DNA of 64,000 nucleotides from Alphaproteobacteria bacterium (GCA_017539865.1 JAFYCE010000101.1:7089-71088); one strand, 5' to 3'. Numbered from the stretch's first letter, positions 1 to 11,842 are shown. Made by a program: numbers and translations. The notes: generated from the sequence alone by a model not told the origin.

Positions 1-87
1 CACTTTTTCCAAATTTATCAAAGACGGTTGTTTTTCTTTTTCATTCCAAATGAACTTTAATTTTCCGTTCTGATAGCCTTTATACAT
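1..87 (-). CDS. Hypothetical protein (N-terminal 29 codons only; gene runs off the window start). Probably phage/island-associated.
   Basis: The ATG at 87 overlaps the stop of the tail-fibre gene (TAATG). It reads MYKGYQNGKLKFIWNEKEKQPSLINLEKV to the window edge. Confidence 0.3.
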   Translation of the reverse strand, partial: MYKGYQNGKLKFIWNEKEKQPSLINLEKV

Positions 88-1748
88 TATTCTTCTCCTT
101 CTGCGTAGATAAATGAAACAACTGGTGTAGTTTGTCCGTAAGCGATTTGGACGCTTTCTCCCGCTTTTGCCGGAATATAAGCGGATATAGTTGAGCCTAA
201 CGTATAAGAATGATCGGAATCTTTGATAAAAGTTGAGAGGTTCTCAATATCCACAAAGGCAAAACTATTCACCTCAACTGTTCCGGAAATTGTAAAAAAT
301 CCGTTTGCTGGGGCGATGTAGGTTGCGAAAGAAGCACCTGTTACTACAATAAGCCTTTTGCTTCCGGGCATTCCCATTTTGGCCAGTTCAGAGGTTGGAT
401 ATGTATTGATTGTATCTATACTTCTGCTCGGCATCGAAACAATCGATCCTCCGCTGACAACGACTATTCCTAAGTCTGTGAAACCAATATCGGAAAAAAC
501 ATTAAAAGTGCTTTTCGTATTCAGCATCCCGTTCGCATCAACAACAAGATGAAGCGTATTATTTACTGCGACTGTCTGAACACCACTTGTTTCCCATATC
601 GTATTAGAACAAGTACCGTCCGAACTGATTGATTGTAAGGCCTGTCCTTTGATATGAGGCAAAACAAATACGGTTGAAGCAATACAACCGATTCCGTTGA
701 ATACTCGATCTATCTGAACATAAGACGAGCCCAAATAGGCAACTTGCGCGCATGGCAAATATACTTCGCCGACCGTTCCCAAATTATCGTTAAATCTTGT
801 TATCTTGGTGTTCGGATTATACCAAAGATACGGAGCCGCCGGTTCTGTTGTTTGGGAAAAGACATGTGTTAAATCCATTTCCCACAAATGACCCGTCTTT
901 GAAACAACCAGCAGTCCTTTTCCTTGAAATCCACCGTTTAAAGAAAGGTCTTGCTGAAGCCTCATATTGTTACCGTTCCCATCATAAACGACACTTCCTG
1001 CAGTTAGTTTTACAACTCCTGCCGTCAGAGAAATTTTTATGTTTTGTGGAACAGACAAAACACGGCTTGCTGTGTACGTTTTGTTAAATTCCGTCGTATC
1101 CATAATTTCCGCCCATCTTTTTGCGGAATGGATTCCATTGACAGACACGATTTCCTCATCCGTTCCTTCTGCCCAGATTCGGGCTTTATTGGCACTGCTG
1201 GAGGCTTGTGTTGCTTGATTTATCGCATCAGTAATAGCAGATATGTGAGTAGCCGCGGTATGAATAGAAGAAATATCGTCCGAAACTGTCGTCAACGATG
1301 AGATGTTTTGAGCCGCAACAACTATCTCGTCTTTGATACGGTAAAGTTTTTCAATTTTATCTACTAATACAGATGGATCAGAAGCTGAAAATAAGTCCAC
1401 CGTTACCGCCCGTTCCGCCTGCTCTTTCAGCTGTTGAATCTGCATTGTCAGCTTGTCGAAATTGCGTTCAAGCGTTTCAGCCGGCAAAACCTCGTTTTCC
1501 CGATAGTCCGTTTCCTGCGTCAACGGCACTTCGCGCATAATCACGATTTGCGCATCATCCGCCGGAGCCGTCGCAAAAACCATATTCCCGCCCGAAACCG
1601 TCCAATCCGTCCTTTCCGTCTGCACGTTGTTTAAAAGTTGTCTGACCTTTAAATGCTCCCTTTCCAAAAAAGGAAACGGGATTGCAAATGTTGTCGCAAC
1701 CCCGTTCCCGATATAAGCCACTTTGTTTGTTGTTGTACTTACCGTCAT
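87..1748 (-). CDS. Phage tail fibre-like protein.
   Basis: A 553-aa ORF with a GAGG RBS before the ATG. The N-terminal KVAYIGNGVATTFAIPFPF motif is typical of phage tail-fibre/tail-collar N-termini. There is a coiled-coil stretch followed by a Gly/Ser/Thr-rich beta-type C-terminal half. Confidence 0.5.
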   Translation of the reverse strand: MTVSTTTNKVAYIGNGVATTFAIPFPFLEREHLKVRQLLNNVQTERTDWTVSGGNMVFATAPADDAQIVIMREVPLTQETDYRENEVLPAETLERNFDKLTMQIQQLKEQAERAVTVDLFSASDPSVLVDKIEKLYRIKDEIVVAAQNISSLTTVSDDISSIHTAATHISAITDAINQATQASSSANKARIWAEGTDEEIVSVNGIHSAKRWAEIMDTTEFNKTYTASRVLSVPQNIKISLTAGVVKLTAGSVVYDGNGNNMRLQQDLSLNGGFQGKGLLVVSKTGHLWEMDLTHVFSQTTEPAAPYLWYNPNTKITRFNDNLGTVGEVYLPCAQVAYLGSSYVQIDRVFNGIGCIASTVFVLPHIKGQALQSISSDGTCSNTIWETSGVQTVAVNNTLHLVVDANGMLNTKSTFNVFSDIGFTDLGIVVVSGGSIVSMPSRSIDTINTYPTSELAKMGMPGSKRLIVVTGASFATYIAPANGFFTISGTVEVNSFAFVDIENLSTFIKDSDHSYTLGSTISAYIPAKAGESVQIAYGQTTPVVSFIYAEGEE

Positions 1749-1855: not shown

Positions 1856-2575
1856 TTACCTTTCCCGTTCCGCCGATCTTCTCTGTTCGTGAAGCTCACG
1901 GAGCTGCCGGATCGTTTTGTGCTTACGCGGAATAACCATCTTTGTCAGAGAAAAATCTCTGTCCTGAAACCGTGTCGCCTGCATCTCCCAACCGAACTCT
2001 TTGGCGACTTCGACCTGGTGTTGCCGGAGCATTTGAAGTTGCGCTTTTTTGAACCGCAACCGCTCCCGACCGTTCGACATTTTCAACAGAATGTGTCCGT
2101 GTGTTGCGGATTGATGCGTATGAACGGCGTATAAATACCGATACCCTCTTTCCGCAAAAGGCTCCATATACCGTTCTATAAACCGATAGGCTTCGTCCTC
2201 GCTGATGTTCATTCTTTTCGGGAAAGATACGATCAGGTGAACCATCGCGTTCCCGTTTTTCCGCCGCTGTTCCAGATCATAAGCGTCTATCGCTTCGTTC
2301 AGCTTTTCGGTCGGAATCAGACGCCGTTCGTCGTCATAAACACGGGCGTCTTTCTCCATTCCTTCCGAGCCGTGCGCGATATAATGAGCGATGTTTTTCG
2401 CTCCCGTCGGTGATTTCACATAGAACGCGACTTTAACCATCGCTTCCGGCGGCGGCACTTTGAAAGAAAGCGTCGCCCTCTGTTTTGCGGGCGGCGAATA
2501 GTGAACCGGGAAGCGTTGACGTTCGACGTATATCCCCCGGATATGTTCGTCCAGCCAGTTCCGTTTATTCGCCAT
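1856..2575 (-). CDS. mobA: MOBQ-type relaxase domain protein (MobA-like, about 240 aa, relaxase domain only).
   Basis: Start re-set to MANKRNW (ATG at 2575). It has an N-terminal catalytic Tyr motif NIAHYIAHGSEG (compare RSF1010 ADYIQREG) and a three-His motif AVHTHQSATHGHILL (compare AIHAGGGENPHCHLMI). It overlaps the stop of the upstream mobC-like gene by 11 nt. Confidence 0.6.
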   Translation of the reverse strand: MANKRNWLDEHIRGIYVERQRFPVHYSPPAKQRATLSFKVPPPEAMVKVAFYVKSPTGAKNIAHYIAHGSEGMEKDARVYDDERRLIPTEKLNEAIDAYDLEQRRKNGNAMVHLIVSFPKRMNISEDEAYRFIERYMEPFAERGYRYLYAVHTHQSATHGHILLKMSNGRERLRFKKAQLQMLRQHQVEVAKEFGWEMQATRFQDRDFSLTKMVIPRKHKTIRQLRELHEQRRSAERER

Positions 2576-2936
2576 AATACGCCGCCAATAGTTTGTTGAT
2601 TTTATCCCGGAGCGCGTGAAGTTCACGGCAAACCTGCTGTAAATCCCGCAAAGTTTTTTCTTCAAGAGATTGTTTTTTTATCAGCGTCGTGTTCAAAGCG
2701 CGGACTGCTTGATTGGTGTTGACGCCGACTTTTCGGGCTTGTTCTTCAAGCTTTGTCAGCAACAAAATTTCGTCATAATGCGGGATTTTCATCTGATGAA
2801 CCCCCGCAAGAATGAACAACCGGATCAGGCGGGACGGACATTGTTTTTCGGCAACGAGCGCGTCCCAGATTTCTTTTTCTATTCTGAACGATTTACGCAA
2901 CATTGGCATTTTTAGCCTCGCAATAAAGTCGTTCAA
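2565..2936 (-). CDS. mobC: MobC-like relaxosome accessory protein.
   Basis: A small ORF directly upstream of the relaxase and translationally coupled to it. The motif KVGVNTNQAVRALN resembles the MobC signature (IGNNLNQIARxLN). The true start may be the internal MPMLRK. Confidence 0.5.
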   Translation of the reverse strand: MNDFIARLKMPMLRKSFRIEKEIWDALVAEKQCPSRLIRLFILAGVHQMKIPHYDEILLLTKLEEQARKVGVNTNQAVRALNTTLIKKQSLEEKTLRDLQQVCRELHALRDKINKLLAAYYGE

Positions 2937-3154
2937 GCGTGTGTGACGAAAGAAATTTTACAGCTGTTTGAGGGCGATTTCAAGGGCGGGTTGGCGGGGT
3001 GTTTTTCGCTCTTTTCGTCGGACGAAAAGGCTTTCCTGCAAAAAAGTAGCCCTCAAAAGAATCAATCCCTTGCGAATCAGCCTCAAACAGCCCTGAAACA
3101 GCCTAAAAACTGACCGCGCCCGCCCAACCGCCCTTTGTTGACGGCTTATTCAAA

Positions 3155-3188
3155 CGGTGTCGCCGCGTGTGCGGCGACCGATTTTTTT
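3155..3188 (+). terminator. Rho-independent terminator-like hairpin, orientated for the + strand.
   Basis: GTCGCCGC-gtgt-GCGGCGAC (8-bp stem) followed by CGATTTTTTT. It lies in the noncoding gap between mobC and the upstream minus-strand genes. Confidence 0.4.
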
Positions 3189-3202
3189 CGGGGAATACGG
3201 CT

Positions 3203-3475
3203 CTATTCGGAGCCGTATTCTTTCTCTATATCGGATATTTTCGGGAGAATCTCTTTTTGAAAATAAGCATCAAAGGCTTGGTTCAAGAAATGTTTTTCCA
3301 TTGAATAGAAAAACTCTGCCAGTTGCTCGTTTCTTGCAAGTTCCTGCATCGTTTCCCGATATTTCTCCGCCACTTCCCCGCCGTGAATGAAACAAAATAA
3401 AGCGGTGGAAAACTCAACATCTTTGCGTTCTTCAAAGTCGGGTAAAAACTCCTCGATTAAATCCCAATACAACAT
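3203..3475 (-). CDS. Hypothetical protein (90 aa), coupled to the upstream gene.
   Basis: The ORF starts 3 nt after the stop of the 3479..3892 gene. No recognisable motif. Confidence 0.4.
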   Translation of the reverse strand: MLYWDLIEEFLPDFEERKDVEFSTALFCFIHGGEVAEKYRETMQELARNEQLAEFFYSMEKHFLNQAFDAYFQKEILPKISDIEKEYGSE

Positions 3476-3478
3476 TGT

Positions 3479-3892
3479 TCAATCCTCCCTGATGACCTGA
3501 CCGACAGGGCAAGGCGTAAAAAATAAATCCAATTCCGCAAGCTCCAAAAGTTCGTCAACGGAGATGTATCCGGCCTCGAAACCATATCCGAAACTCGCCC
3601 AACCGAACGCCTGAATTTGCTTTTCGGCGGTGTCTTTTTCGACGATGTAGCCGTCATAGGAACCGACAAAATAGTGCAGTTGAGCCAAAGCGTTTTTGCC
3701 TTGTCCGTCCGTTTCATAGACTTGCGGCATCGTTTTGATTCGCTCGGCAAGGTTCAGGATAATGTCCGCGAACGCTCCGGCTTCCTCGGAATGATACAGA
3801 TTGTCGATAAGGGTTTGAGCCTGCCGAACCGGCATAAACGGTTTAAGGGTCGTTTTCATTTCGTTTAAGGCTTGGTCGAATTTATCGGTCAT
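3479..3892 (-). CDS. Conserved MGE leading-region protein of unknown function (possibly DUF2958-like).
   Basis: 137 aa with a GGAG RBS. Motifs LHYFVGSYDGYIVEKD and AFGWASFGYGFEAGYISVDEL recall a small family found beside ardC on plasmids/ICEs. It shares promoter, leader and the first 6 codons (MTDKFD) with ardC at 6058. Confidence 0.4.
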   Translation of the reverse strand: MTDKFDQALNEMKTTLKPFMPVRQAQTLIDNLYHSEEAGAFADIILNLAERIKTMPQVYETDGQGKNALAQLHYFVGSYDGYIVEKDTAEKQIQAFGWASFGYGFEAGYISVDELLELAELDLFFTPCPVGQVIRED

Positions 3893-4098
3893 TGTCTTGC
3901 TCCTTCTCTGTAAAAAGCACTTGGTTAAAGGGTTTTAGGCATCGCGCCTGAAACCCTTTCGAGGTGCTTCGTCGGAGAGAAGAAAGCGATTGTCATATTC
4001 CAAGAAAAACGGAGGGGTATCGCCCGTCTTGCAGCATTGCGAAAGTCGGGGAAACCGTTTTTCTTCCGTCAGGCGGAGGGAATTGACAATCAAGAAAA
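3875..4098. repeat. Copy A of a ~200-230 bp direct repeat (promoter/leader cassette); about 90% identical to copy B.
   Basis: Aligned by eye to 6041..6271. It contains the start codon plus 6 codons and RBS of the minus-strand gene, a 14-bp-stem hairpin at 3927..3959, and on the + strand a TTGACA box at 4086. Confidence 0.8.
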
Positions 4099-4143
4099 TT
4101 TATTGTCCACTTACTTAAGAAAAATACTGTTAAGGAAAAATCT

Positions 4144-4896
4144 ATGACAAAAATTCATTTTGTAAAAAAGCAAAGCGACATCATAAGAAATATAGAAAAA
4201 CTGTATGAGTATCTTGCTTCTTCCGATAAAACTTTATCTGATTTTGCTTTTAATCTTATGAAGCGAGGGCGAGCCTATGTCGCTTATTATGACGATAATT
4301 GTGATAAATGGCTTTTAGCTCCTAGTAGATTTGTCGGATACAAGAACAATGATTACAAAAAACATAAAATGAATGATGAAAAAGATGGAACAAGAACCTC
4401 TAAAAAAATAGACGAGATTTTAAAATGCGGATACAAAACTAACAAAAAATTAGAATCTCTTTTAAAAACGATTTTTGAAGTTCCTTCTTATAAAGAAGCT
4501 AAACTCCATTTTTGGATTTTAGGAGATGACAGAAAGCTTGATAAACAAACAATGGAAGAACAAGCTCAAAAATATATAGAACAAAAGAAATTAAAAGAGC
4601 ATATATTTTATGAAGGTCGTATTTCTGGAAAAATACGTAAAAAAATAATTGAACAATTAGGAACAACATGCGAAGCCTGTGGCAGAAAAATGGAAGAAAT
4701 ATATGGTGAAATAGGCAGAGGATATATAGAATTACATCATTTAAAACCTTTCTGTAATTTGGATATTGGAAAAGAAAGGGTAGTAACTCCTTCTGATTTT
4801 GCTGTTTTATGCCCGAACTGTCATAAAATGATTCATAAAACAAACGAAACAAGTGATATTAAAAAATTCAAAAAAAGAATAAAAAAATCCGTTTAA
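4144..4896 (+). CDS. McrA-like HNH endonuclease (putative modification-dependent or other restriction/defence nuclease).
   Basis: 250 aa with an AAGGA RBS. The C-terminal CEACG...IELHHLKP...LCPNCHKMIH matches the McrA-type HNH/zinc-finger pattern (CxxC..HH..N..CPNCH..H). The N-terminal 170 aa are unrecognised. The gene sits in a sharply AT-rich island (about 4100-4900). Confidence 0.6.
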   Translation: MTKIHFVKKQSDIIRNIEKLYEYLASSDKTLSDFAFNLMKRGRAYVAYYDDNCDKWLLAPSRFVGYKNNDYKKHKMNDEKDGTRTSKKIDEILKCGYKTNKKLESLLKTIFEVPSYKEAKLHFWILGDDRKLDKQTMEEQAQKYIEQKKLKEHIFYEGRISGKIRKKIIEQLGTTCEACGRKMEEIYGEIGRGYIELHHLKPFCNLDIGKERVVTPSDFAVLCPNCHKMIHKTNETSDIKKFKKRIKKSV

Positions 4897-4994
4897 ACGT
4901 AAAAGAAATTCTTTTTTCGGGCGGATTGCGAAGCAATCGGGCATGGCATCGGGCGAAAAACGGGGCAGATACAGAATCGTATCCGCCTGAATTT

Positions 4995-5159
4995 TTAGAA
5001 GTAATATGTCGTTTTTTCCAAGTCGTCGCGCTTATATCCCTGCGCGATCAGTTCGTAAAATTTGGACAGTTGTGCGGCTTTGCTGTGAAAGTCGAAATGT
5101 TCTTTTTCGTATCCGTCCGCGCCGTAAATCGTCAGTCTGAAAAAAGCAATCTTCATTGT
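4995..5159 (-). CDS. Small hypothetical protein (54 aa) downstream of ardC.
   Basis: Strong RBS AGGAGGAAGAACA-ATG. Reads MKIAFFRLTIYGADGYEKEHFDFHSKAAQLSKFYELIAQGYKRDDLEKTTYYF. Confidence 0.4.
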   Translation of the reverse strand, partial: TMKIAFFRLTIYGADGYEKEHFDFHSKAAQLSKFYELIAQGYKRDDLEKTTYYF

Positions 5160-5185
5160 TCTTCCTCCTCTTTTGAGGGAAGCGG

Positions 5186-6058
5186 TCAAGCCGCTTCCCG
5201 TCCGATTTCCTGGAATGTCAGCAGATAGTCAAAAGCCTTTTGCGCTTCGGAGCAGGCTTTGAAAATCGCCTTTTTGTCGTTCTTCAAAACCTTGAGCCAA
5301 GATTTCAAGTAAGCAAGGTTGTTTTTGCTGAATTGATAGTCATAACCCAAATATCCGGCGACAAATCCCGCGCCGATGTCGGCGATCAGTTCCTCAAAGG
5401 CGTAGGATTCATTTCCGAAACGGCCTTTCATATCCCGGTTTAAGCGGTTCTTGTGTCCGGTCGCGTGGATTGTTTCGTGCGCCAAAGTCGAAACGAAGCC
5501 GGTTTCCGTTTTGAAGTCTTTTCTTTCCGGCATTAAGACAACATTGTTTTTCGGGTCGTAGCCTGCCAAAGTCGCGCCGTAAAAATAAGAGATGTCCGTG
5601 TTTTCAAAAAACGCCATCACGTCCTTTTCAACGCTAAATTCGGCTTTTTCGATGTCTTCGCCGAATCCCTCGACTTGCGAACCGTTAAACACGGAATAAG
5701 CGCGGGCGACAAAAGCCTGGTTTTCGACTTCTTCGATGTCGCCGGTTTCGGTGTTTTCGACTTCGCATTTATAGGAAAGAGGTTTCCAGAAAACGATGGT
5801 CGTCGCCTTTGAGTCTTTCTTGACCTGATAGCCTTTATCCTGCCATTGGCGATAAGTTCCCCAAACGGACGAGGAAAAACCGTTGAACAAAGCGGCAAAG
5901 TTCAAAATCAGAATGTTGATGCCGCGATAAGCCTTTTTTGTCGTGATGTTCCGGGCAAAAGAGGAAATAAACGGCTTTTCCCATTCGCCGGAAAAGTTTT
6001 CCAAATGTTCGATGATGGTGTTTGAAACGGTTTCGATGATGTCGAATTTATCAGTCAT
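5186..6058 (-). CDS. ardC: Anti-restriction protein ArdC (ssDNA-binding N-terminal domain plus C-terminal HExxH metalloprotease-like domain).
   Basis: Start re-set to MTDKFD (ATG at 6058, RBS GGAG). Motifs YRGINILIL and HETIHATGH are characteristic of ArdC/DUF1738. The ORF-track start at 6262 lies inside the repeat/leader. Confidence 0.7.
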   Translation of the reverse strand: MTDKFDIIETVSNTIIEHLENFSGEWEKPFISSFARNITTKKAYRGINILILNFAALFNGFSSSVWGTYRQWQDKGYQVKKDSKATTIVFWKPLSYKCEVENTETGDIEEVENQAFVARAYSVFNGSQVEGFGEDIEKAEFSVEKDVMAFFENTDISYFYGATLAGYDPKNNVVLMPERKDFKTETGFVSTLAHETIHATGHKNRLNRDMKGRFGNESYAFEELIADIGAGFVAGYLGYDYQFSKNNLAYLKSWLKVLKNDKKAIFKACSEAQKAFDYLLTFQEIGREAA

Positions 6059-6271
6059 TTTGAAAGCTCCTTCTCTGTAAAAAGCACTTGTTAAAGGGTT
6101 TTTGGCATCGCGCCTGAAACCCTTTCGAGGTGCTTCGTCGGAGAGAAGAAAGCGATTGTCATATTCCAAGAAAAACGGAGGGGTATCACCCATCTTGCAA
6201 CGACACCGGAGCGAAAGTCGGGGAAACCGTTTTTCTTCCGTTAGGCGGCAGGGAATTGACAATCAAGAAAA
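6041..6271. repeat. Copy B of the promoter/leader cassette repeat.
   Basis: See copy A. Hairpin at 6093..6125 and a TTGACA at 6256. On the minus strand it is upstream of ardC; on the + strand it is upstream of the HU gene. Confidence 0.8.
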
Positions 6272-6338
6272 GGCTTTGCTTAAACCTTGAAAAAAGGATA
6301 ATCTGTGCTTCTGTTTATATTTGAAATGGAGTTGCATT

Positions 6339-6611
6339 ATGAACAAAGCAGAATTAGTGGCTGAAATCGCGAAGAACACCGGTTTGACGAAAGTTGATTC
6401 CGAACGGGCGACGGAAGCCTTGTTGAATACGGTTGCCGCGACCTTGAAGAAAGGCGATGAAGTTCGTTTGGTCGGCTTTGGCACGTTCAGCGTGACGAAA
6501 CGTCCAGCTTCGACCGGTCGCAATCCGCGCACGGGTGCGGAAATCAAGATTCCGGCTTCCAAACAGCCGAAATTCAAAGCCGGTAAAGGTCTGAAAGACG
6601 CTTTGAACTAA
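6339..6611 (+). CDS. hupB: DNA-binding protein HU.
   Basis: MNKAELVAEIA...GFGTFSVTKRPASTGRNPRTGAEIKIPA is the classic HU/IHF-family fold sequence. It is followed by a strong terminator. Confidence 0.9.
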   Translation: MNKAELVAEIAKNTGLTKVDSERATEALLNTVAATLKKGDEVRLVGFGTFSVTKRPASTGRNPRTGAEIKIPASKQPKFKAGKGLKDALN

Positions 6612-6941: not shown

Positions 6942-7018
6942 TGGTGATCTCGCCGCGATTCGAACGCGGGACCCACAGCTTAGAAGGCTGTTGCTCTATC
7001 CAGCTGAGCTACGAGACC
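6942..7018 (-). tRNA. argU: tRNA-Arg (anticodon UCU), argU-like.
   Basis: A 77-nt cloverleaf folded by hand: acceptor GGTCTCG/CGAGATC, D arm GCTC-AGCTGGATA-GAGC, anticodon arm ACAGC-CTTCTAA-GCTGT, T arm CCGCG-TTCGAAT-CGCGG, discriminator A plus CCA. The anticodon arm closely matches E. coli argU. Confidence 0.85.
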
Positions 7019-7222
7019 ACTGCGCCATTTTTTAAACCGAACGGCGTTTGATATCAAGTCTTTTTTCAAATAAAGGGAAAAATATCCGGCGAAAAAAGGT
7101 TTTACGGTTTGTCGGAAAAGAAATTTTTAACAAATGATATCTATCATTTAGAACAGTGGAAAAGTTTCTTTAAGCAACAGTGGCCGGCTTTTGTTGCTTT
7201 TATATTTTTTAAGGTGTTCGCC

Positions 7223-10200
7223 ATGAGACAGACAAAAACGACAATTAAAGAATTAACCGCACGGTATAGAACGGTTTTGTTGAAGTGCGCATTGATAAAC
7301 GCCGCGTTTTTTATAACGGTCGGGACGGCAAAGGCGGAGGAAGAGATTCAACCGACAATCAATGTGTTGAAGGAATCTGCAACAGATTATTTGAATAATG
7401 AACATAAAAATTACGTGTTGGCGACGGAAAAAGGCGAACATACGGCGCAAATCGTTATCAACGGCACAACATACTATTTCACGCCGGATGAAAGCTCGCC
7501 GGAATTGAACGATGCGGTGGTAAATCTGGCGAATATAGGAGCCACCGCGCTTATTGCGGGAACGGCAAGCGATTATACTTTCTTCGTTCCGGCACCGGCA
7601 GGATATTTTAAATACGATCCCGCAAAACTGCCGTCTTCCGTTTACAGTTATTCTGATTCCGGTTCAGGGATTACTGCGGTTACTTTTGACAGCTCGCAGT
7701 ATCAGGTCATAAGTCAAACAAGCTTCGGAAGCGGGGGGGAAACCTATTCGTTTACTATAAATGAAGTACCGATAAATGCGCATTACGCATCTCCGTCTTT
7801 GATCAGACAGGTCATTGAAAGCAATGCTGATAATGTGTCAGGGGATTTTTATAATATATCGGGCGACACAATGGGCGGCGCGATTTCTTTTACCAGCACG
7901 GCGGGCGCTTATACCATAGGTTCCGTTAACAGCGATTTTATAGCCAACTATACAACGGACGGTCAAGGCGGCGCGATTTATAATTTTACGAACACGATAG
8001 GTACTATTTCGGGCGATTTTATAGATAACTATGCCGTTTCGACGGCAGATGACGCTTTGACCGCTTACGGTGGGGCCATTGTCAATCAGGGCGGTGCTGA
8101 AGGAACGGGAAAAATCGGTCTTATCAGCGGTAATTTTGTCAGAAACCATGTTGATTTATCCGCTTCGGCCGCAACAGAAAATACAAAAGTTTACGGCGGC
8201 GCGATTTTTAACTGGGATGTTGCCGAAATAGGGACTATTTCGGCGAATTTCATTGCCAACTATGCCAAAGCAAAACCCGAAAAAGAAAATCAAAATGTCG
8301 CCGGCGGTGCGATAGCGAACTTTTCCGAATCCTCTTCAGGGGCGCGTATCGGCAACATTACAGGTGATTTTATCAAAAACAACATTCAAAACGGCAACAG
8401 CAAAGCATACGGCGGCGCGATTTACAATCAATCTGTTATCGGCAATATCACCGGCGATTTTATCGCGAACACGATTACCCGAGCCGGCGGAGAAGGTTAT
8501 GGCGGCGCAATTTATAACGATGGGACTTTAGGAACGGTTACGGGCGATTTTGTCGAAAACTATGTAAAGAACAGCGCAGCCGGCAAAGCATACGGCGGCG
8601 CGGTTTATAATAACGGGACGATAGGTGCGATCACCGGCAGTTTCATAGGAAACTATGCTCAGGTAGTTGCCGGAGAGGGAACGGATGCGCACGGCGGCGC
8701 GATTTATACGAATTCTTCATTAAACTTTGTTGCCGATAACACATCAATGGTGTTTTCCGGAAACTATATCTCAAAAGACGATGGCGGAACTAAGGCTTAT
8801 GAGGCGATTTATGCGTCTTCCGCTTCCGCCGCGCTGACTTTTTCCATAAAAAATGAGGGCGAAGCGACCTTGTACGATTATATCAACGGGGTTGACGGTT
8901 ATTCGGTCAATTTCACGGGCGATGAAACCGGCACGCTCTATTTATTCAATGACATTAAAAATGCGGCTGTCACGTTGGATAAGGTCAAACTCAATCTTCA
9001 AAACAACGAAATCAAAGAATATGACGCTTTCAAAAGTTTGACATTGAACAGCGATATTCCTCTTTCGTTGGATATAAATTTGACTGGTGCTGGATCGGCA
9101 GACAAACTTTCAGCGATGAATGTTGATGCGAATGACCATTTTTTGATTATCGATTCAATCAAATTTTCAGGAGCGATGGAGGGGGCGTCGACCACTATAC
9201 CGGTGGTGGGAGACACTCTGAAAGATTATGTCAAACTTTCGGCGGATGATTTGACGGTTACAGGGCTGGGGACAGGGAATAAATATCTGATTGCGTATGT
9301 AAAAGATGCCGAAGGTGTTTTGAATGTTAAAACGGGGGCCGAAGCCACATTGGCTTCAGCGGTGGCTTCTACGGCAAGCGAGCGTGCTTATGTTTTGGGA
9401 GATAGTGAAGATATTGAGCAGAATCTCGGGGCGATGGGAGGGACGGCTCTTCATATTTTCAAAACAGGCGGCGGCATCGTCACGATAAACGGGCAAACTC
9501 ATGCGGGAATAACCGTTGGCGGCGGTCAAAGTTTGAGTATAAAGGATGTGCTATTCGCTAATTTCAGTACGGTCATCACCAATCAGGGCACATTGTCTCT
9601 GACAAATGTTCAAATCAATGGTGAAAATGCAATCGGAATCAATAATGGCGGAACATTAAAGCTGAATGGAGAAGTGATAATTGATACTTCAATCATTGAT
9701 ACGGCCGGTACGGGAAAAACGGAAATTGCGGCTGACAGCAACAACAACGTTTCTGCTGCTTTGACGCAAAATACGCTGACCGTTGCAACGGGGGCTTCTT
9801 TTACTGCGGGGACGGTGACCGTTACCAACGGCGGATCCATTGCCGCCAATGCGTCCATCTCGGGAGATATGGTTGTAAAGGGCGGTACTTTTACGGTTAG
9901 TGAAAACGGCAGTATAACAGGGACGATCGGGGTCGATCCGGCGGCGACAATGACGGTTGACAAAGGAGCTTTGGCTTCGGTTGAAAACAAAGGGACGATG
10001 CTTGTCAAAAACGCCAGTACGATAGGCGGAAATCTGGTCAATTCCGGAACAATAGGGCTTGATTCCAGCAGTGTGACCGGAAACATAACCAACTCGGGAA
10101 CGATGGGGATTAAAGACAGTGCCTCCGCTAACGTAACCAATACGGGATCATTTACGGTTGCCGGAAATTTTACGGGCAATTTGGAAAACCGTTCTCAATT

Positions 10201-11842
10201 TTCAATAAACGGAAATGTTAATTTTACCGGTTCGATTCATAATGACGCTTCCGCAAATATGAATGTCGCAAATACGCTGACCGTTTCCGGCGGTGTGACA
10301 AACGACGGCATAATAAAGGGCGGCGGAACGATCGCCGGAAACGTGACCAGCAGCGCTCAAGGAACCATCGGTACGTCGATGACAATTGGCGGAACATTGA
10401 CTTCTGCAGGGAACATCCTTTTGGAATCAAACACAACGACCCCCTATGCAATGACGGTCGATACGTTAAACATTACGGGCGGAAAACTGGTTTTATCCTC
10501 CGGAAACAAAACGTATCAGAAAGGCGATGTCGTTACGGTCATCAACTTTGATACGCTGGCGGGATTCAGCGGTTTTGAACCGTGGACGTATCTGACCGAT
10601 TTTGTTGTGGCGATGCCGCATCAGGAAGCGGATAAGATAACCGCGACGATAGATTTCATTCCAATGTCGCAGGAAGCGTCCACGTCTTCTTTCACACCCG
10701 ATGAACACAAGATTATCCAAGCCATTGATGACATTTATATGAATCAGGGCAAAGCGGATTTCGGCAGGTTTTATTTCTATACGCCGCAGGAATTGAAAGA
10801 ACAGGTCAATTTGTTGCGTTCTAAAGCCATGCCCGTTCTGAACGAACAGCTGCCTTTGACAAAAGTCATGTCATCGCAGGTTTATGCGCATCTGTTCACC
10901 AATTCAATGGTCAAAGACGCGGGAACGCTTTACCATCCGCATGTTCCCATGCAGCGGTTCCAAGGGGGCTATTATCGCGGGCGTTCCGGCGGTAGTACGC
11001 TGAAAAATCAGAAAGTGTGGGGGCAAATTCTGGGCGGCGTCACCAAAGAGGACGGAGACGCTTCTGTCGGTCGGAATGATTCAACGACCAGATCCGTCGG
11101 GGTCATGTTCGGATACGACCATGAAACTTCGGAAAAATTCATGTTCGGTTTTACGGCGGGAATGGCTTCCGCGAAATTAAGTCAGGATAATAATAAAGTC
11201 GATCTTCGCGATTATAGGGCGGGTTTCTATACCGCATCGCGATTCGGGCGCATGACGTTGAATACTCTGACGATGGGCGGCTTCCAACAGTATAATACCG
11301 AAAAGAATATGACGCTGGCCGGAATGGAAACCAAAAACAAAGCCGATTTTAACGGATATTCGGCGGAATTTAACGTCAATCTGGGATACGATTTCATGAA
11401 GGTACCGTATCGGGATTATTCTTTCCATATCCGTTCCTATCTGTCGGCGGATGTCAGTTATCTTCATCAGGACGCCTATAAGGAAAAAGGCAGCGTTATA
11501 TCGGCGATCGGTCTGAAAGCGATAGATGATACGTCGGTCAGTGTTTCTCCGGGGATAACGTTCGGTTATACTTTTTCGGAATCGGTTTTGACGGCGGATA
11601 TCGGATATCAACGTCTTCTCAGCGGCGGTTCGTTGCACAGTTCGGCTTATTTCGCGGCGGATGAAACTAAAACGACGTTTGCGTCGTTTGAAACAGAAGC
11701 GGATAAGGATTTCCTGAATGCCGGATTGGGCTTTAAAACAAAATTGACGCGCGATTGCCAGCTGAATTTGTGGGCGGGAACCAGAATATCCGACAAAACA
11801 AGCTCGTTGAATTTTGCAGCGACGTTTTCCTATGCGTTTTAA
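7223..11842 (+). CDS. Pmp-like autotransporter adhesin (type Va secretion): beta-helical passenger plus C-terminal beta-barrel.
   Basis: Start re-set to MRQTKTT (extended signal peptide ending ...TAKA). Nine GGA[IV]...FxxN repeats. The C-terminal 280 aa have alternating aromatic/hydrophobic beta strands ending ...ATFSYAF (terminal Phe). Confidence 0.85.
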   Translation: MRQTKTTIKELTARYRTVLLKCALINAAFFITVGTAKAEEEIQPTINVLKESATDYLNNEHKNYVLATEKGEHTAQIVINGTTYYFTPDESSPELNDAVVNLANIGATALIAGTASDYTFFVPAPAGYFKYDPAKLPSSVYSYSDSGSGITAVTFDSSQYQVISQTSFGSGGETYSFTINEVPINAHYASPSLIRQVIESNADNVSGDFYNISGDTMGGAISFTSTAGAYTIGSVNSDFIANYTTDGQGGAIYNFTNTIGTISGDFIDNYAVSTADDALTAYGGAIVNQGGAEGTGKIGLISGNFVRNHVDLSASAATENTKVYGGAIFNWDVAEIGTISANFIANYAKAKPEKENQNVAGGAIANFSESSSGARIGNITGDFIKNNIQNGNSKAYGGAIYNQSVIGNITGDFIANTITRAGGEGYGGAIYNDGTLGTVTGDFVENYVKNSAAGKAYGGAVYNNGTIGAITGSFIGNYAQVVAGEGTDAHGGAIYTNSSLNFVADNTSMVFSGNYISKDDGGTKAYEAIYASSASAALTFSIKNEGEATLYDYINGVDGYSVNFTGDETGTLYLFNDIKNAAVTLDKVKLNLQNNEIKEYDAFKSLTLNSDIPLSLDINLTGAGSADKLSAMNVDANDHFLIIDSIKFSGAMEGASTTIPVVGDTLKDYVKLSADDLTVTGLGTGNKYLIAYVKDAEGVLNVKTGAEATLASAVASTASERAYVLGDSEDIEQNLGAMGGTALHIFKTGGGIVTINGQTHAGITVGGGQSLSIKDVLFANFSTVITNQGTLSLTNVQINGENAIGINNGGTLKLNGEVIIDTSIIDTAGTGKTEIAADSNNNVSAALTQNTLTVATGASFTAGTVTVTNGGSIAANASISGDMVVKGGTFTVSENGSITGTIGVDPAATMTVDKGALASVENKGTMLVKNASTIGGNLVNSGTIGLDSSSVTGNITNSGTMGIKDSASANVTNTGSFTVAGNFTGNLENRSQFSINGNVNFTGSIHNDASANMNVANTLTVSGGVTNDGIIKGGGTIAGNVTSSAQGTIGTSMTIGGTLTSAGNILLESNTTTPYAMTVDTLNITGGKLVLSSGNKTYQKGDVVTVINFDTLAGFSGFEPWTYLTDFVVAMPHQEADKITATIDFIPMSQEASTSSFTPDEHKIIQAIDDIYMNQGKADFGRFYFYTPQELKEQVNLLRSKAMPVLNEQLPLTKVMSSQVYAHLFTNSMVKDAGTLYHPHVPMQRFQGGYYRGRSGGSTLKNQKVWGQILGGVTKEDGDASVGRNDSTTRSVGVMFGYDHETSEKFMFGFTAGMASAKLSQDNNKVDLRDYRAGFYTASRFGRMTLNTLTMGGFQQYNTEKNMTLAGMETKNKADFNGYSAEFNVNLGYDFMKVPYRDYSFHIRSYLSADVSYLHQDAYKEKGSVISAIGLKAIDDTSVSVSPGITFGYTFSESVLTADIGYQRLLSGGSLHSSAYFAADETKTTFASFETEADKDFLNAGLGFKTKLTRDCQLNLWAGTRISDKTSSLNFAATFSYAF
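7840..8720 (+). repeat. Array of nine GGAI / FxxN (Pmp-type) passenger repeats inside the autotransporter.
   Basis: GGAISF..SDFIANY; GGAIYNF..GDFIDNY; GGAIVN..GNFVRNH; GGAIFN..ANFIANY; GGAIANF..GDFIKNN; GGAIYNQ..GDFIANT; GGAIYND..GDFVENY; GGAVYNN..GSFIGNY; GGAIYTN..SGNY. Confidence 0.8.

Follow-up and report, generated by a model that had tools for sequence, protein, structure and literature searches.

A repeated two-hairpin cassette before anti-defence genes of a putative mobilizable element from gut Alphaproteobacteria: a candidate start signal on single-stranded DNA

Why should two different genes of one bacterial island begin with the same leader, the same ribosome binding site (RBS) and the same six codons? 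The question is raised by a stretch of 64,000 nucleotides from an Alphaproteobacteria bacterium (GCA_017539865.1 JAFYCE010000101.1:7089-71088; in its full length this is the window, and positions count from its first letter), in which an ardC-type anti-restriction gene and a second gene, here called geneA, lie on the minus strand, each behind one copy of a repeated, strongly folding unit of ~215 bases. The model that we favour in this computational analysis, with confidence evenly balanced between its being right and wrong, is one where the unit represents a new class of signal for starting RNA synthesis on single-stranded DNA (ssDNA), in the manner of ssDNA promoters and single-strand initiation (ssi) elements; it would act as a start-and-leader cassette for leading-region anti-defence genes and be shared with a family of filamentous phages. 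More tentatively, and with somewhat less than even confidence, we propose that the two abutting hairpins of the unit form an undescribed class of ssDNA start signal, common by descent to a phage complementary-strand origin region and to leading-region cassettes (ArdC, phrog_5203) in uncultured gut Alphaproteobacteria.

A unit of two abutting hairpins

The two copies are direct repeats at 3875-4098 and 6041-6271, 90.1% identical, as a preliminary description of this DNA had estimated (about 90%) when it read each repeat as giving the leader, the RBS (GGAG) and the first six codons (MTDKFD) to a different minus-strand gene; both statements are confirmed. Homology sets in at GTCGAATTTATC (3875 and 6041) and ends abruptly (...CAATCAAGAAAA at 4098 and 6271, ...GGAATTGACAATCAAGAAAA). 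It reaches 18 nucleotides into the two genes, so that both proteins start MTDKFD, the minus strand of each copy reading GGAG and then ATG ACx GAT AAA TTC GAC. Two diagnostic sub-motifs occur exactly twice each in the 64 kb (0.00-0.02 expected), and a covariance model found no third copy of the unit in the window; the copy number there is thus two. The parts of the unit are as follows.

3875-4098, minus strand: copy A of the cassette, with distal tail, hairpin 1, hairpin 2, Shine-Dalgarno (SD) sequence, ATG and the first six codons of geneA; covariance-model match at 3987-4094, 111.8 bits
3988-4091, minus strand: hairpin 1 of copy A, from folds and covariation; basal stem GATTGTCA(T)ATTCC / GGAATTGACAATC, middle stem AAGAAAAACGG / CCGTTTTTCTT, tip variable
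3899-3987, minus strand: hairpin 2 of copy A, from folds; inner hairpin of 13-14 base pairs at 3927-3959
6041-6271, minus strand: copy B of the cassette, 5' of ardC; covariance-model match at 6153-6267, 117.8 bits
6154-6264, minus strand: hairpin 1 of copy B, with TTGACA on the plus strand at 6256-6261 and a tip loop six nucleotides longer than in copy A
6066-6153, minus strand: hairpin 2 of copy B, which includes the SD sequence; GGAG is the complement of 6067-6070

The whole unit is made of two hairpins that abut without a spacer, and this fold recurs in all variants. Against shuffled sequences the z-scores run from -4.4 to -7.0 for either strand, folded as RNA or as DNA, with the plus strand as DNA reaching -52.0 kcal/mol (z -7.0). 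The hairpin that the preliminary description had placed in the 5' untranslated region is present, yet it is merely the tip of this far larger two-hairpin fold; its stem at 3927-3959, given as 14 base pairs, has 13 Watson-Crick pairs and one G.T on the plus strand, equal to an A.C mismatch on the minus strand, and the counterpart in copy B carries one further T.T mismatch. The basal stem of hairpin 1 is a palindrome (GATTGTCA.../...TGACAATC), whose 3' arm on the plus strand holds TTGACA, at 4083-4088 in copy A. In hairpin 2, a pyrimidine tract (GCTTTCTTCTCTCC, gene sense) pairs with the SD region AGAGAAGGAGC. Rfam 15 gave no match for the unit, the sole window match above gathering score being a tRNA; with the threshold relaxed to E 10, no match in 3700-6500 was better than E 1.5.

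Copies elsewhere and selection on the fold

An exact two-anchor pattern, searched among genomes of 185,579 species, retrieved four contigs, all of them metagenome-assembled genomes (MAGs) of Alphaproteobacteria and at least one labelled as a human-gut MAG. A 20-mer search gave 17 metagenome contigs, several from the human gut, of which 15 hold true copies and two, from soil, are chance matches. A more diverged copy (L009) was reached through a geneA homologue of 73% identity, and a still more diverged one (L034), which stands before an ArdC gene on an IMG/VR contig, was found by structural pattern. Exact-pattern scans of viral contigs with two unit motifs returned no match, and neither did blastn of the unit against the 72,556 plasmids of PLSDB. 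All copies with visible downstream sequence precede an ardC-type gene, a geneA-type gene or a small open reading frame (ORF) of an inovirus. The preliminary description had weighed against its own proposal a generic element of the repetitive extragenic palindromic (REP) kind, found in many unrelated chromosomal contexts; the two copies in 64 kb and this constant company are of another kind, and no REP-like spread, or spread like that of a miniature inverted-repeat transposable element (MITE), over unrelated intergenic sites was seen, with a maximum of two to three copies per locus.

The cassette is strongly structured, and its structure is maintained by selection. Across 21 distinct copies from gut alphaproteobacterial contigs, 98.5% of alignment cells are paired, and nine pairs show double changes, against 3.5 +/- 1.1 in shuffled alignments (0/500) and 0-3 in slid controls. 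Taken over all contexts, hairpin 1 has double changes in 15 of 31 pairs against 7.4, with 96.5% of cells paired against at most 57% when slid, in an alignment that was fitted to the model and is biased towards pairing. The compensatory changes include TT/AA to AA/TT in the basal stem (L024 and L030), A-T to C-G in the L017 group, G-C to C-G to T-A at the top of the A5/T5 stem, and AAAAACGG/CCGTTTTT to AAAAAGAGG/CCTCTTTTT in L038. The identity of the unit often lies above that of the gene behind it (93% versus 80%, 94% versus 87.5%, 89% versus 78%). The unpaired stretches UACCCCU and CCGACGAAGCACCUCG are likewise conserved; part of the latter stood in the search pattern, and it is conserved too in L009 and L034, copies reached in other ways. 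Conservation ends ~8 nucleotides beyond the base of hairpin 1, upstream flanks being unrelated among copies. A terminator-like hairpin sits directly upstream, at the unit boundary, in L004, L022 and L035; a terminator directly upstream of every copy was considered and holds for some copies only.

Leading-region and phage settings

The genes around the two copies in the window are the following.

5186-6058, minus strand: ArdC-type anti-restriction protein; ArdcN 1e-31, MPTase-PolyVal 1e-37 (zincin metallopeptidase)
4995-5189, minus strand: orf64, downstream of ardC
3479-3892, minus strand: geneA, 137 amino acids; no Pfam family; phrog_5203, function unknown
3203-3475, minus strand: orf90, always downstream of geneA
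2937-3202, no strand: intergenic region between orf90 and mobC, with inverted repeats and GGCTGTTT repeats
1856-2936, minus strand: MobC-like gene (2565-2936) and MobA/VirD2-type relaxase gene (1856-2665)
4144-4896, plus strand: HNH nuclease that resembles type IV methyl-directed restriction enzymes; variable cargo adjoining the distal end of copy A
6339-6611, plus strand: HU-type DNA-binding protein, past the distal end of copy B

The label "DUF2958-like" once given to the 137-residue product of geneA has no support, since the protein lacks a Pfam match and belongs to phrog_5203 instead. Homologues of geneA are found both in early regions of phages and in leading regions of plasmids. The family, seen in L008, L010, L011 and L033 as well as in the window, includes members next to RadC, DnaB and polymerase genes of phages and one on an Iodobacter plasmid, in a leading-type cluster with a C5 methylase, SSB, ParA, KorB and MobC. 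Both phrog_5203 and orf90 are candidate early anti-defence proteins.

Wherever the sequence suffices, the order is element, ardC, (cargo), element, geneA, orf90, intergenic region, mobC and relaxase. The genes ardC, orf64, geneA and orf90 all point to the intergenic region before mobC and the relaxase gene, and the leading genes of plasmid F likewise point to the origin of transfer (oriT) and tra. This is the geometry of the F leading region in gene order and in orientation relative to MobC and relaxase, and it agrees with the resemblance to leading-region layouts that had been proposed; the idea of a reused expression module is supported as well, by a self-contained cassette before two co-oriented genes. 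The element looks like a mobilizable one, and these genes like its leading region. In the intergenic region, inverted repeats GTCGCCGC/GCGGCGAC (3159-3178) and CTTTTCGTC/GACGAAAAG (3011-3029) accompany tandem GGCTGTTT-like repeats at ~3080-3110; this region probably holds oriT and the binding region of accessory proteins. No known nick motif was recognised in 2937-3202, and tblastn found no relatives of the relaxase in PLSDB. Entry of the relaxase gene last is the usual case (PMC11541004). If that order applies here, the plus strand would be the one transferred, and it is also the template of ardC and geneA. In L025, a umuC-like gene lies upstream on the opposite strand; umu-like genes are reported to flank many anti-defence islands (Samuel et al., PMC11541004).

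Beyond the distal ends of the copies the cargo differs: the HNH gene in the window, a SWIM protein in L005, a UvrD/GajB-like helicase in L007, and no outward gene at the second copy of L025. Several of these variable neighbours look defence-related, namely the HNH/type IV restriction-like nuclease of the window (4144-4896), the SWIM protein (L005 3906-4520), the helicase (L007 998-3691) and a DUF3800 protein (L025 7065-8264) that matches the PADLOC candidate system PDC-S51 (E 1e-81). At the edge of the island, a tRNA-Arg(TCT) gene (6942-7018) lies directly past the HU gene, and the ArdC cassette of L034 likewise adjoins the 3' end of a tRNA gene; after the tRNA-Arg gene comes a gene for a 1577-residue protein (7109-11842), autotransporter-like by the appearance of its sequence (no family comparison). 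Directly downstream of the relaxase gene is a podovirus-type tail/tail-fibre gene (87-1748, minus strand; phrog_1640, E 3e-36; T7 tail-fibre N-terminal domain). The mobilization module may thus adjoin a prophage or be part of one; to the left, the island runs beyond the window.

A second setting for the unit was found in filamentous phages. In L027, an 8.8-kb filamentous prophage is inserted in geneA, with genes for a Rep_trans initiator, g8-like and g3-like proteins, DUF2523, Zot, secretin, DUF2726 and an IS110-type transposase; in the intergenic region of this phage lies a hairpin-1 homologue (87 bits), which a different long hairpin directly abuts. Seven further loci of this phage family, whose Zot proteins are 60-97% identical to that of L027, include both free contigs of ~9 kb and prophages integrated at different sites. 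In each of the seven (7/7) the module occupies the intergenic stretch between the DUF2726 gene and the IS110-type transposase gene, is always antisense to the phage genes and falls within the prophage boundaries. A protein search found no relatives of these inoviruses in IMG/VR.

Inoviruses, by the rule of the Ff phages, package the mRNA-sense strand, so that on the packaged strand the element has the polarity that it has on the inferred T-strand. Ff phages have a two-hairpin minus-strand origin in their intergenic region, and it is primed by host RNA polymerase. The analogy with Frpo and ssi elements that had been drawn for this locus thus gains independent support, from a hairpin module in a filamentous-phage intergenic region with the polarity expected for an entering single strand. 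The phage module also precedes a gene, a conserved hydrophobic ORF of 25 amino acids (VTKQRMLTILTLAIIFWFSFIKELN and variants) that is templated by the entering strand and antisense to all phage genes (L035 ~7130-7210, minus strand; L027 2346-2423, plus strand; L036, L037 and L038). A bridge RNA of the IS110-type transposase was considered for the module and rejected, as the element lies on the opposite strand and the copies of the mobilizable element have no such gene nearby.

The phage family itself uses varied insertion sites. In L039 (4582-5002 and 14563-15275; also L040), a filamentous prophage of ~9.5 kb with an IS110-type transposase lies inside a type II array of clustered regularly interspaced short palindromic repeats (CRISPR), which has a 36-nucleotide repeat (GTTGCGGTTTGACCCAAAATAATTATCTGCTATAAT) at a 66-nucleotide period, repeats on both sides of the prophage and Cas2, Cas1 and Cas9 adjoining; other members are inserted beside a GmrSD gene (L038) and beside murJ (L041).

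Start signal, rival explanations and known systems

Where, then, would RNA synthesis begin? As the flanks are unrelated and some carry a terminator-like hairpin, any start signal should lie inside the unit. No sigma-70 promoter was found in the unit on either strand, even at 8/12 matches and with spacers of 15-19 nucleotides, with the exception of TTGACA-19-TAAACC in copy B. The duplex sense strand offers only ATGACA, 17 base pairs and GACGAA, which, judged by these hexamers, is not a usable sigma-70 promoter. On the plus-strand 3' arm of hairpin 1, TTGAC(A) is kept in all copies from mobilizable elements and inoviruses (TTGAtt in L034); the opposite arm varies (ATGAC, GTGAC, TTGAC) and has a bulge of 1-2 nucleotides at that spot. 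Motifs of the sigma-54, sigma-32 and extracytoplasmic function (ECF) types were sought by eye and discarded, spacing varying among the copies.

We suggest that the cassette serves genes whose products are needed immediately upon entry of the element, as ssDNA, into a new cell. The entering strand, presumably the plus strand of the window and hence the template of ardC and geneA, would fold into the two abutting hairpins, and hairpin 1 would show the conserved TTGAC(A) as duplex on its 3' arm, with the opposite arm bulged by 1-2 nucleotides. Host RNA polymerase may then bind the folded DNA and start RNA towards the gene; this RNA would be the mRNA for the anti-defence genes and possibly also a primer for the complementary strand. 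Once the DNA becomes double-stranded the hairpins would be lost, leaving ATGACA-17 bp-GACGAA, and expression would go off. Hairpin 2, by pairing the RBS with the upstream pyrimidine tract, would leave read-through transcripts from duplex DNA poorly translated. The two direct copies, 2.2 kb apart, also recombine and thereby delete or swap the genes between them.

Several observations weigh against this model. Covariation cannot separate RNA from ssDNA, and in a strand test, substitutions of the G.U type and of the A.C type proved about equally frequent. Of the two strands, the entering one has the better fold in 17-18 of the 21 mobilizable-element copies and the poorer fold in the inovirus copies and in L034. 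In L009, L024 and L034, compensatory changes preserve the sequestration of the SD sequence, most simply a feature at the RNA level. On no arm is TTGAC accompanied by a -10-like hexamer at a constant spacing; a split promoter, with the -35 from hairpin 1 and a TG-TAAAAA from the internal loop of hairpin 2, fits the window with a spacer of ~15-16, and was dropped because that spacing is not conserved: it is ~12-13 in L009, and L024 and the inovirus copies depart from it too. The transferred strand and the nick site are deduced; the ArdC copy of L034 has a tRNA gene and genes of prophage type as neighbours, and no relaxase is visible there. The inovirus unit, preceding a small gene as it does, could simply be the promoter and leader of that gene. 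Finally, the unit shows no similarity to the M13 origin or to Frpo/ssi elements: a covariance model run with filters off on the M13 intergenic region gave a best E of 0.15, which is not significant. The short strings shared with M13, CTTGATTTG and CGGTTTTTC...TTGAC, are taken as chance.

The explanation that best survives beside the ssDNA start signal, rather unlikely in our view and nonetheless a serious rival, is a structured 5' mRNA leader. The promoter of this transcript would lie either in the variable flanking DNA or at the unit's outer edge, hairpin 2 would hide the RBS until some trigger acts (a protein, a small RNA, processing or temperature), and hairpin 1 would stabilise the transcript or bind a regulator. 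Such a leader would account for the conserved pyrimidine tract that pairs with the SD sequence in all mobilizable-element copies, with two-sided changes that keep this pairing in L034 (UUCUCCC/GGGAGAA) and gene-sense G.U pairs in L009 and L024, and it fits the inovirus copies, where a different upstream sequence, AACCUCC, pairs with the SD sequence GGAGGUU. It is also in line with two near-invariant gene-sense G.U pairs (128:211 and 141:199), with a weak promoter-like site in the flank of copy A (TTGTCA-18-TATTTT at 4150-4121) and with a sense strand that outfolds its complement in the inovirus and L034 copies. Yet with flanks unrelated, and some of them bearing a terminator-like hairpin at the boundary, each copy would need its own outside promoter; the leader matches no Rfam family, and SD pairing does not extend to hairpin 2 of the inoviruses, which does not contain the SD sequence. 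Nor would a leader explain why polarity matches the entering strand in both the conjugative and the filamentous-phage settings, or why one arm keeps TTGAC when the sequence opposite it varies. A function as mRNA leader could also be a second layer upon an ssDNA start signal, for example by silencing read-through transcripts from duplex DNA.

To an ordinary double-stranded bidirectional promoter or operator we give very little credence. The arms of the unit (TTGTCAAT ... TTGACAA, AAAAACGG ... CCGTTTTT) would here bind RNA polymerase or a plasmid global repressor, and would drive the minus-strand gene together with its plus-strand neighbour. Plasmids often carry repeated promoter modules controlled by global repressors; TTGACA does face outward, 55-80 nucleotides before the start codons of HNH and HU, and in some copies a weak -10-like hexamer follows at 17-19 nucleotides (CTTAAT, TAAAAA, TAAACC). 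The preliminary description had taken TTGACA for the -35 box of such a plus-strand promoter: the -35-like hexamer is there, but no -10 stands at 15-19 nucleotides from it on either strand. Its bidirectional module stays an unproven guess, given that an outward promoter would have no conserved -10 in the variable flanks, that none is conserved in the other direction either, and that the would-be targets are variable cargo, absent altogether at the second copy of L025. Protein sites on duplex DNA, moreover, need no covariation of arms that keeps more than 30 positions paired while the tip varies.

Recombination at the repeats, which the preliminary description had offered as an alternative, is real. 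The metagenome contig L001 has HU, one hybrid copy that resembles copy B distally and copy A proximally, and geneA, with HNH, orf64 and ardC absent and 2.17 kb deleted, the product expected of recombination between two direct repeats, which thus act as recombination substrates. The hairpin regions of the two L025 copies are essentially identical (both 126.1 bits), unit variants, which differ in the tip loop, do not track gene type, and the distal boundary is sharp with differing cargo beyond it (HNH, SWIM, UvrD-like gene, HU). A reading of the unit as primarily a recombination or mobility feature, that is as the boundary of a cassette, or as a folded site of the MITE or attC type for cargo insertion and exchange, with its position before genes incidental, is nevertheless the least credible of all, because deletion and homogenisation by homologous recombination are expected of any direct repeats that are 90-100% identical and leave the conserved structure unexplained, the proximal end always spans the SD sequence and start codon and so ties the unit to expression signals, and no recombinase is consistently linked to copies that never occur at unrelated intergenic sites. 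The attC-like and MITE-like forms were set aside by inspection, with no attC core (GTTRRRY), terminal inverted repeats or target duplications seen.

The interest of an ssDNA start signal in this setting stems from what is known of others. On conjugative plasmids, ssDNA promoters switch on anti-defence genes before the restriction and CRISPR systems of the recipient act. To our knowledge they have been experimentally defined so far only in IncF and IncI plasmids of Escherichia coli, and beyond these they have been found mostly by similarity or through promoter boxes in hairpins. Should our model hold, the unit would add a class unrelated in sequence, backed by covariation and not by motif spotting, from an uncultured gut lineage, with a direct evolutionary link to an intergenic element of filamentous phages; "zygotic" expression from entering ssDNA would then be an exchangeable module of conjugative elements and ssDNA phages, well beyond enterobacterial plasmids. 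If instead the mRNA leader were the right explanation, an uncatalogued structured leader would control ArdC.

Among leaders that sequester the SD sequence, such as translational riboregulators and type I toxin mRNAs, an upstream pyrimidine tract likewise pairs with the SD sequence, and here that pairing is kept by compensatory change; the unit differs in having no Rfam match, identified trigger or conserved upstream promoter, and in that hairpin 1 would have no obvious role. The single-strand origins ssoA and ssoU of rolling-circle plasmids are orientation-specific folded ssDNA recognised by RNA polymerase, and ssoU supports establishment after mobilization. Their RS-B and CS-6 (TAGCGT) motifs were not seen in the unit, which, unlike them, is coupled to downstream translation signals and present twice.

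The historical definition of plasmid ssi elements, which include Frpo (ssiD), was that they can stand in for a phage minus-strand origin, so a module common to both settings has a precedent in function, not in sequence. With the Ff minus-strand origin (hairpins [B] and [C]; mentioned in PMC7948647), the unit shares two adjacent hairpins, the packaged strand and the inovirus intergenic region, a homologous module holding that kind of position with fixed polarity in 7/7 inovirus loci. One difference is that the module here also precedes a gene, the 25-residue ORF in the phage and ardC or geneA in the mobilizable element; priming would be by analogy only.

The closest parallel is Frpo. In plasmid F, Frpo1 and Frpo2 are 92% identical, lie 5 kb apart, are needed for early expression of leading genes and form a predicted substrate for deletion (PMC9849209); other classes of ssDNA promoter hairpin, unrelated in sequence and with their starts mapped, are carried by pESBL and F (PMC12672017), and such hairpins also slow complementary-strand synthesis (bioRxiv 10.64898/2026.01.09.698686). 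Like Frpo and ssi elements, the unit is non-coding, strongly folding and directly upstream of leading genes, ArdC included, that are templated by the strand presumed to be transferred. Like Frpo, it comes as two near-identical direct copies a few kb apart and has no usable duplex promoter; the deletion between copies that was predicted for Frpo1/2 is observed here, in L001. Sequence kinship, in contrast, was found neither by blastn against the 72,556 plasmids nor by profile hidden Markov model or covariance model on the F leading region (L031, with both Frpo copies). The unit is ~215 nucleotides long with two abutting hairpins, whereas Frpo is one stem-loop of ~330 nucleotides; only a -35-like hexamer is recognisable in it, with no reconstituted -10, and RBS and first codons lie inside the repeated unit. 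Its host is an uncultured gut alphaproteobacterium and its vehicle a small MobC-relaxase mobilizable element, as against an IncF or IncI plasmid. Overall, we suggest that it is best filed as a unit that may work like an ssDNA promoter or ssi element, outside the Frpo family.

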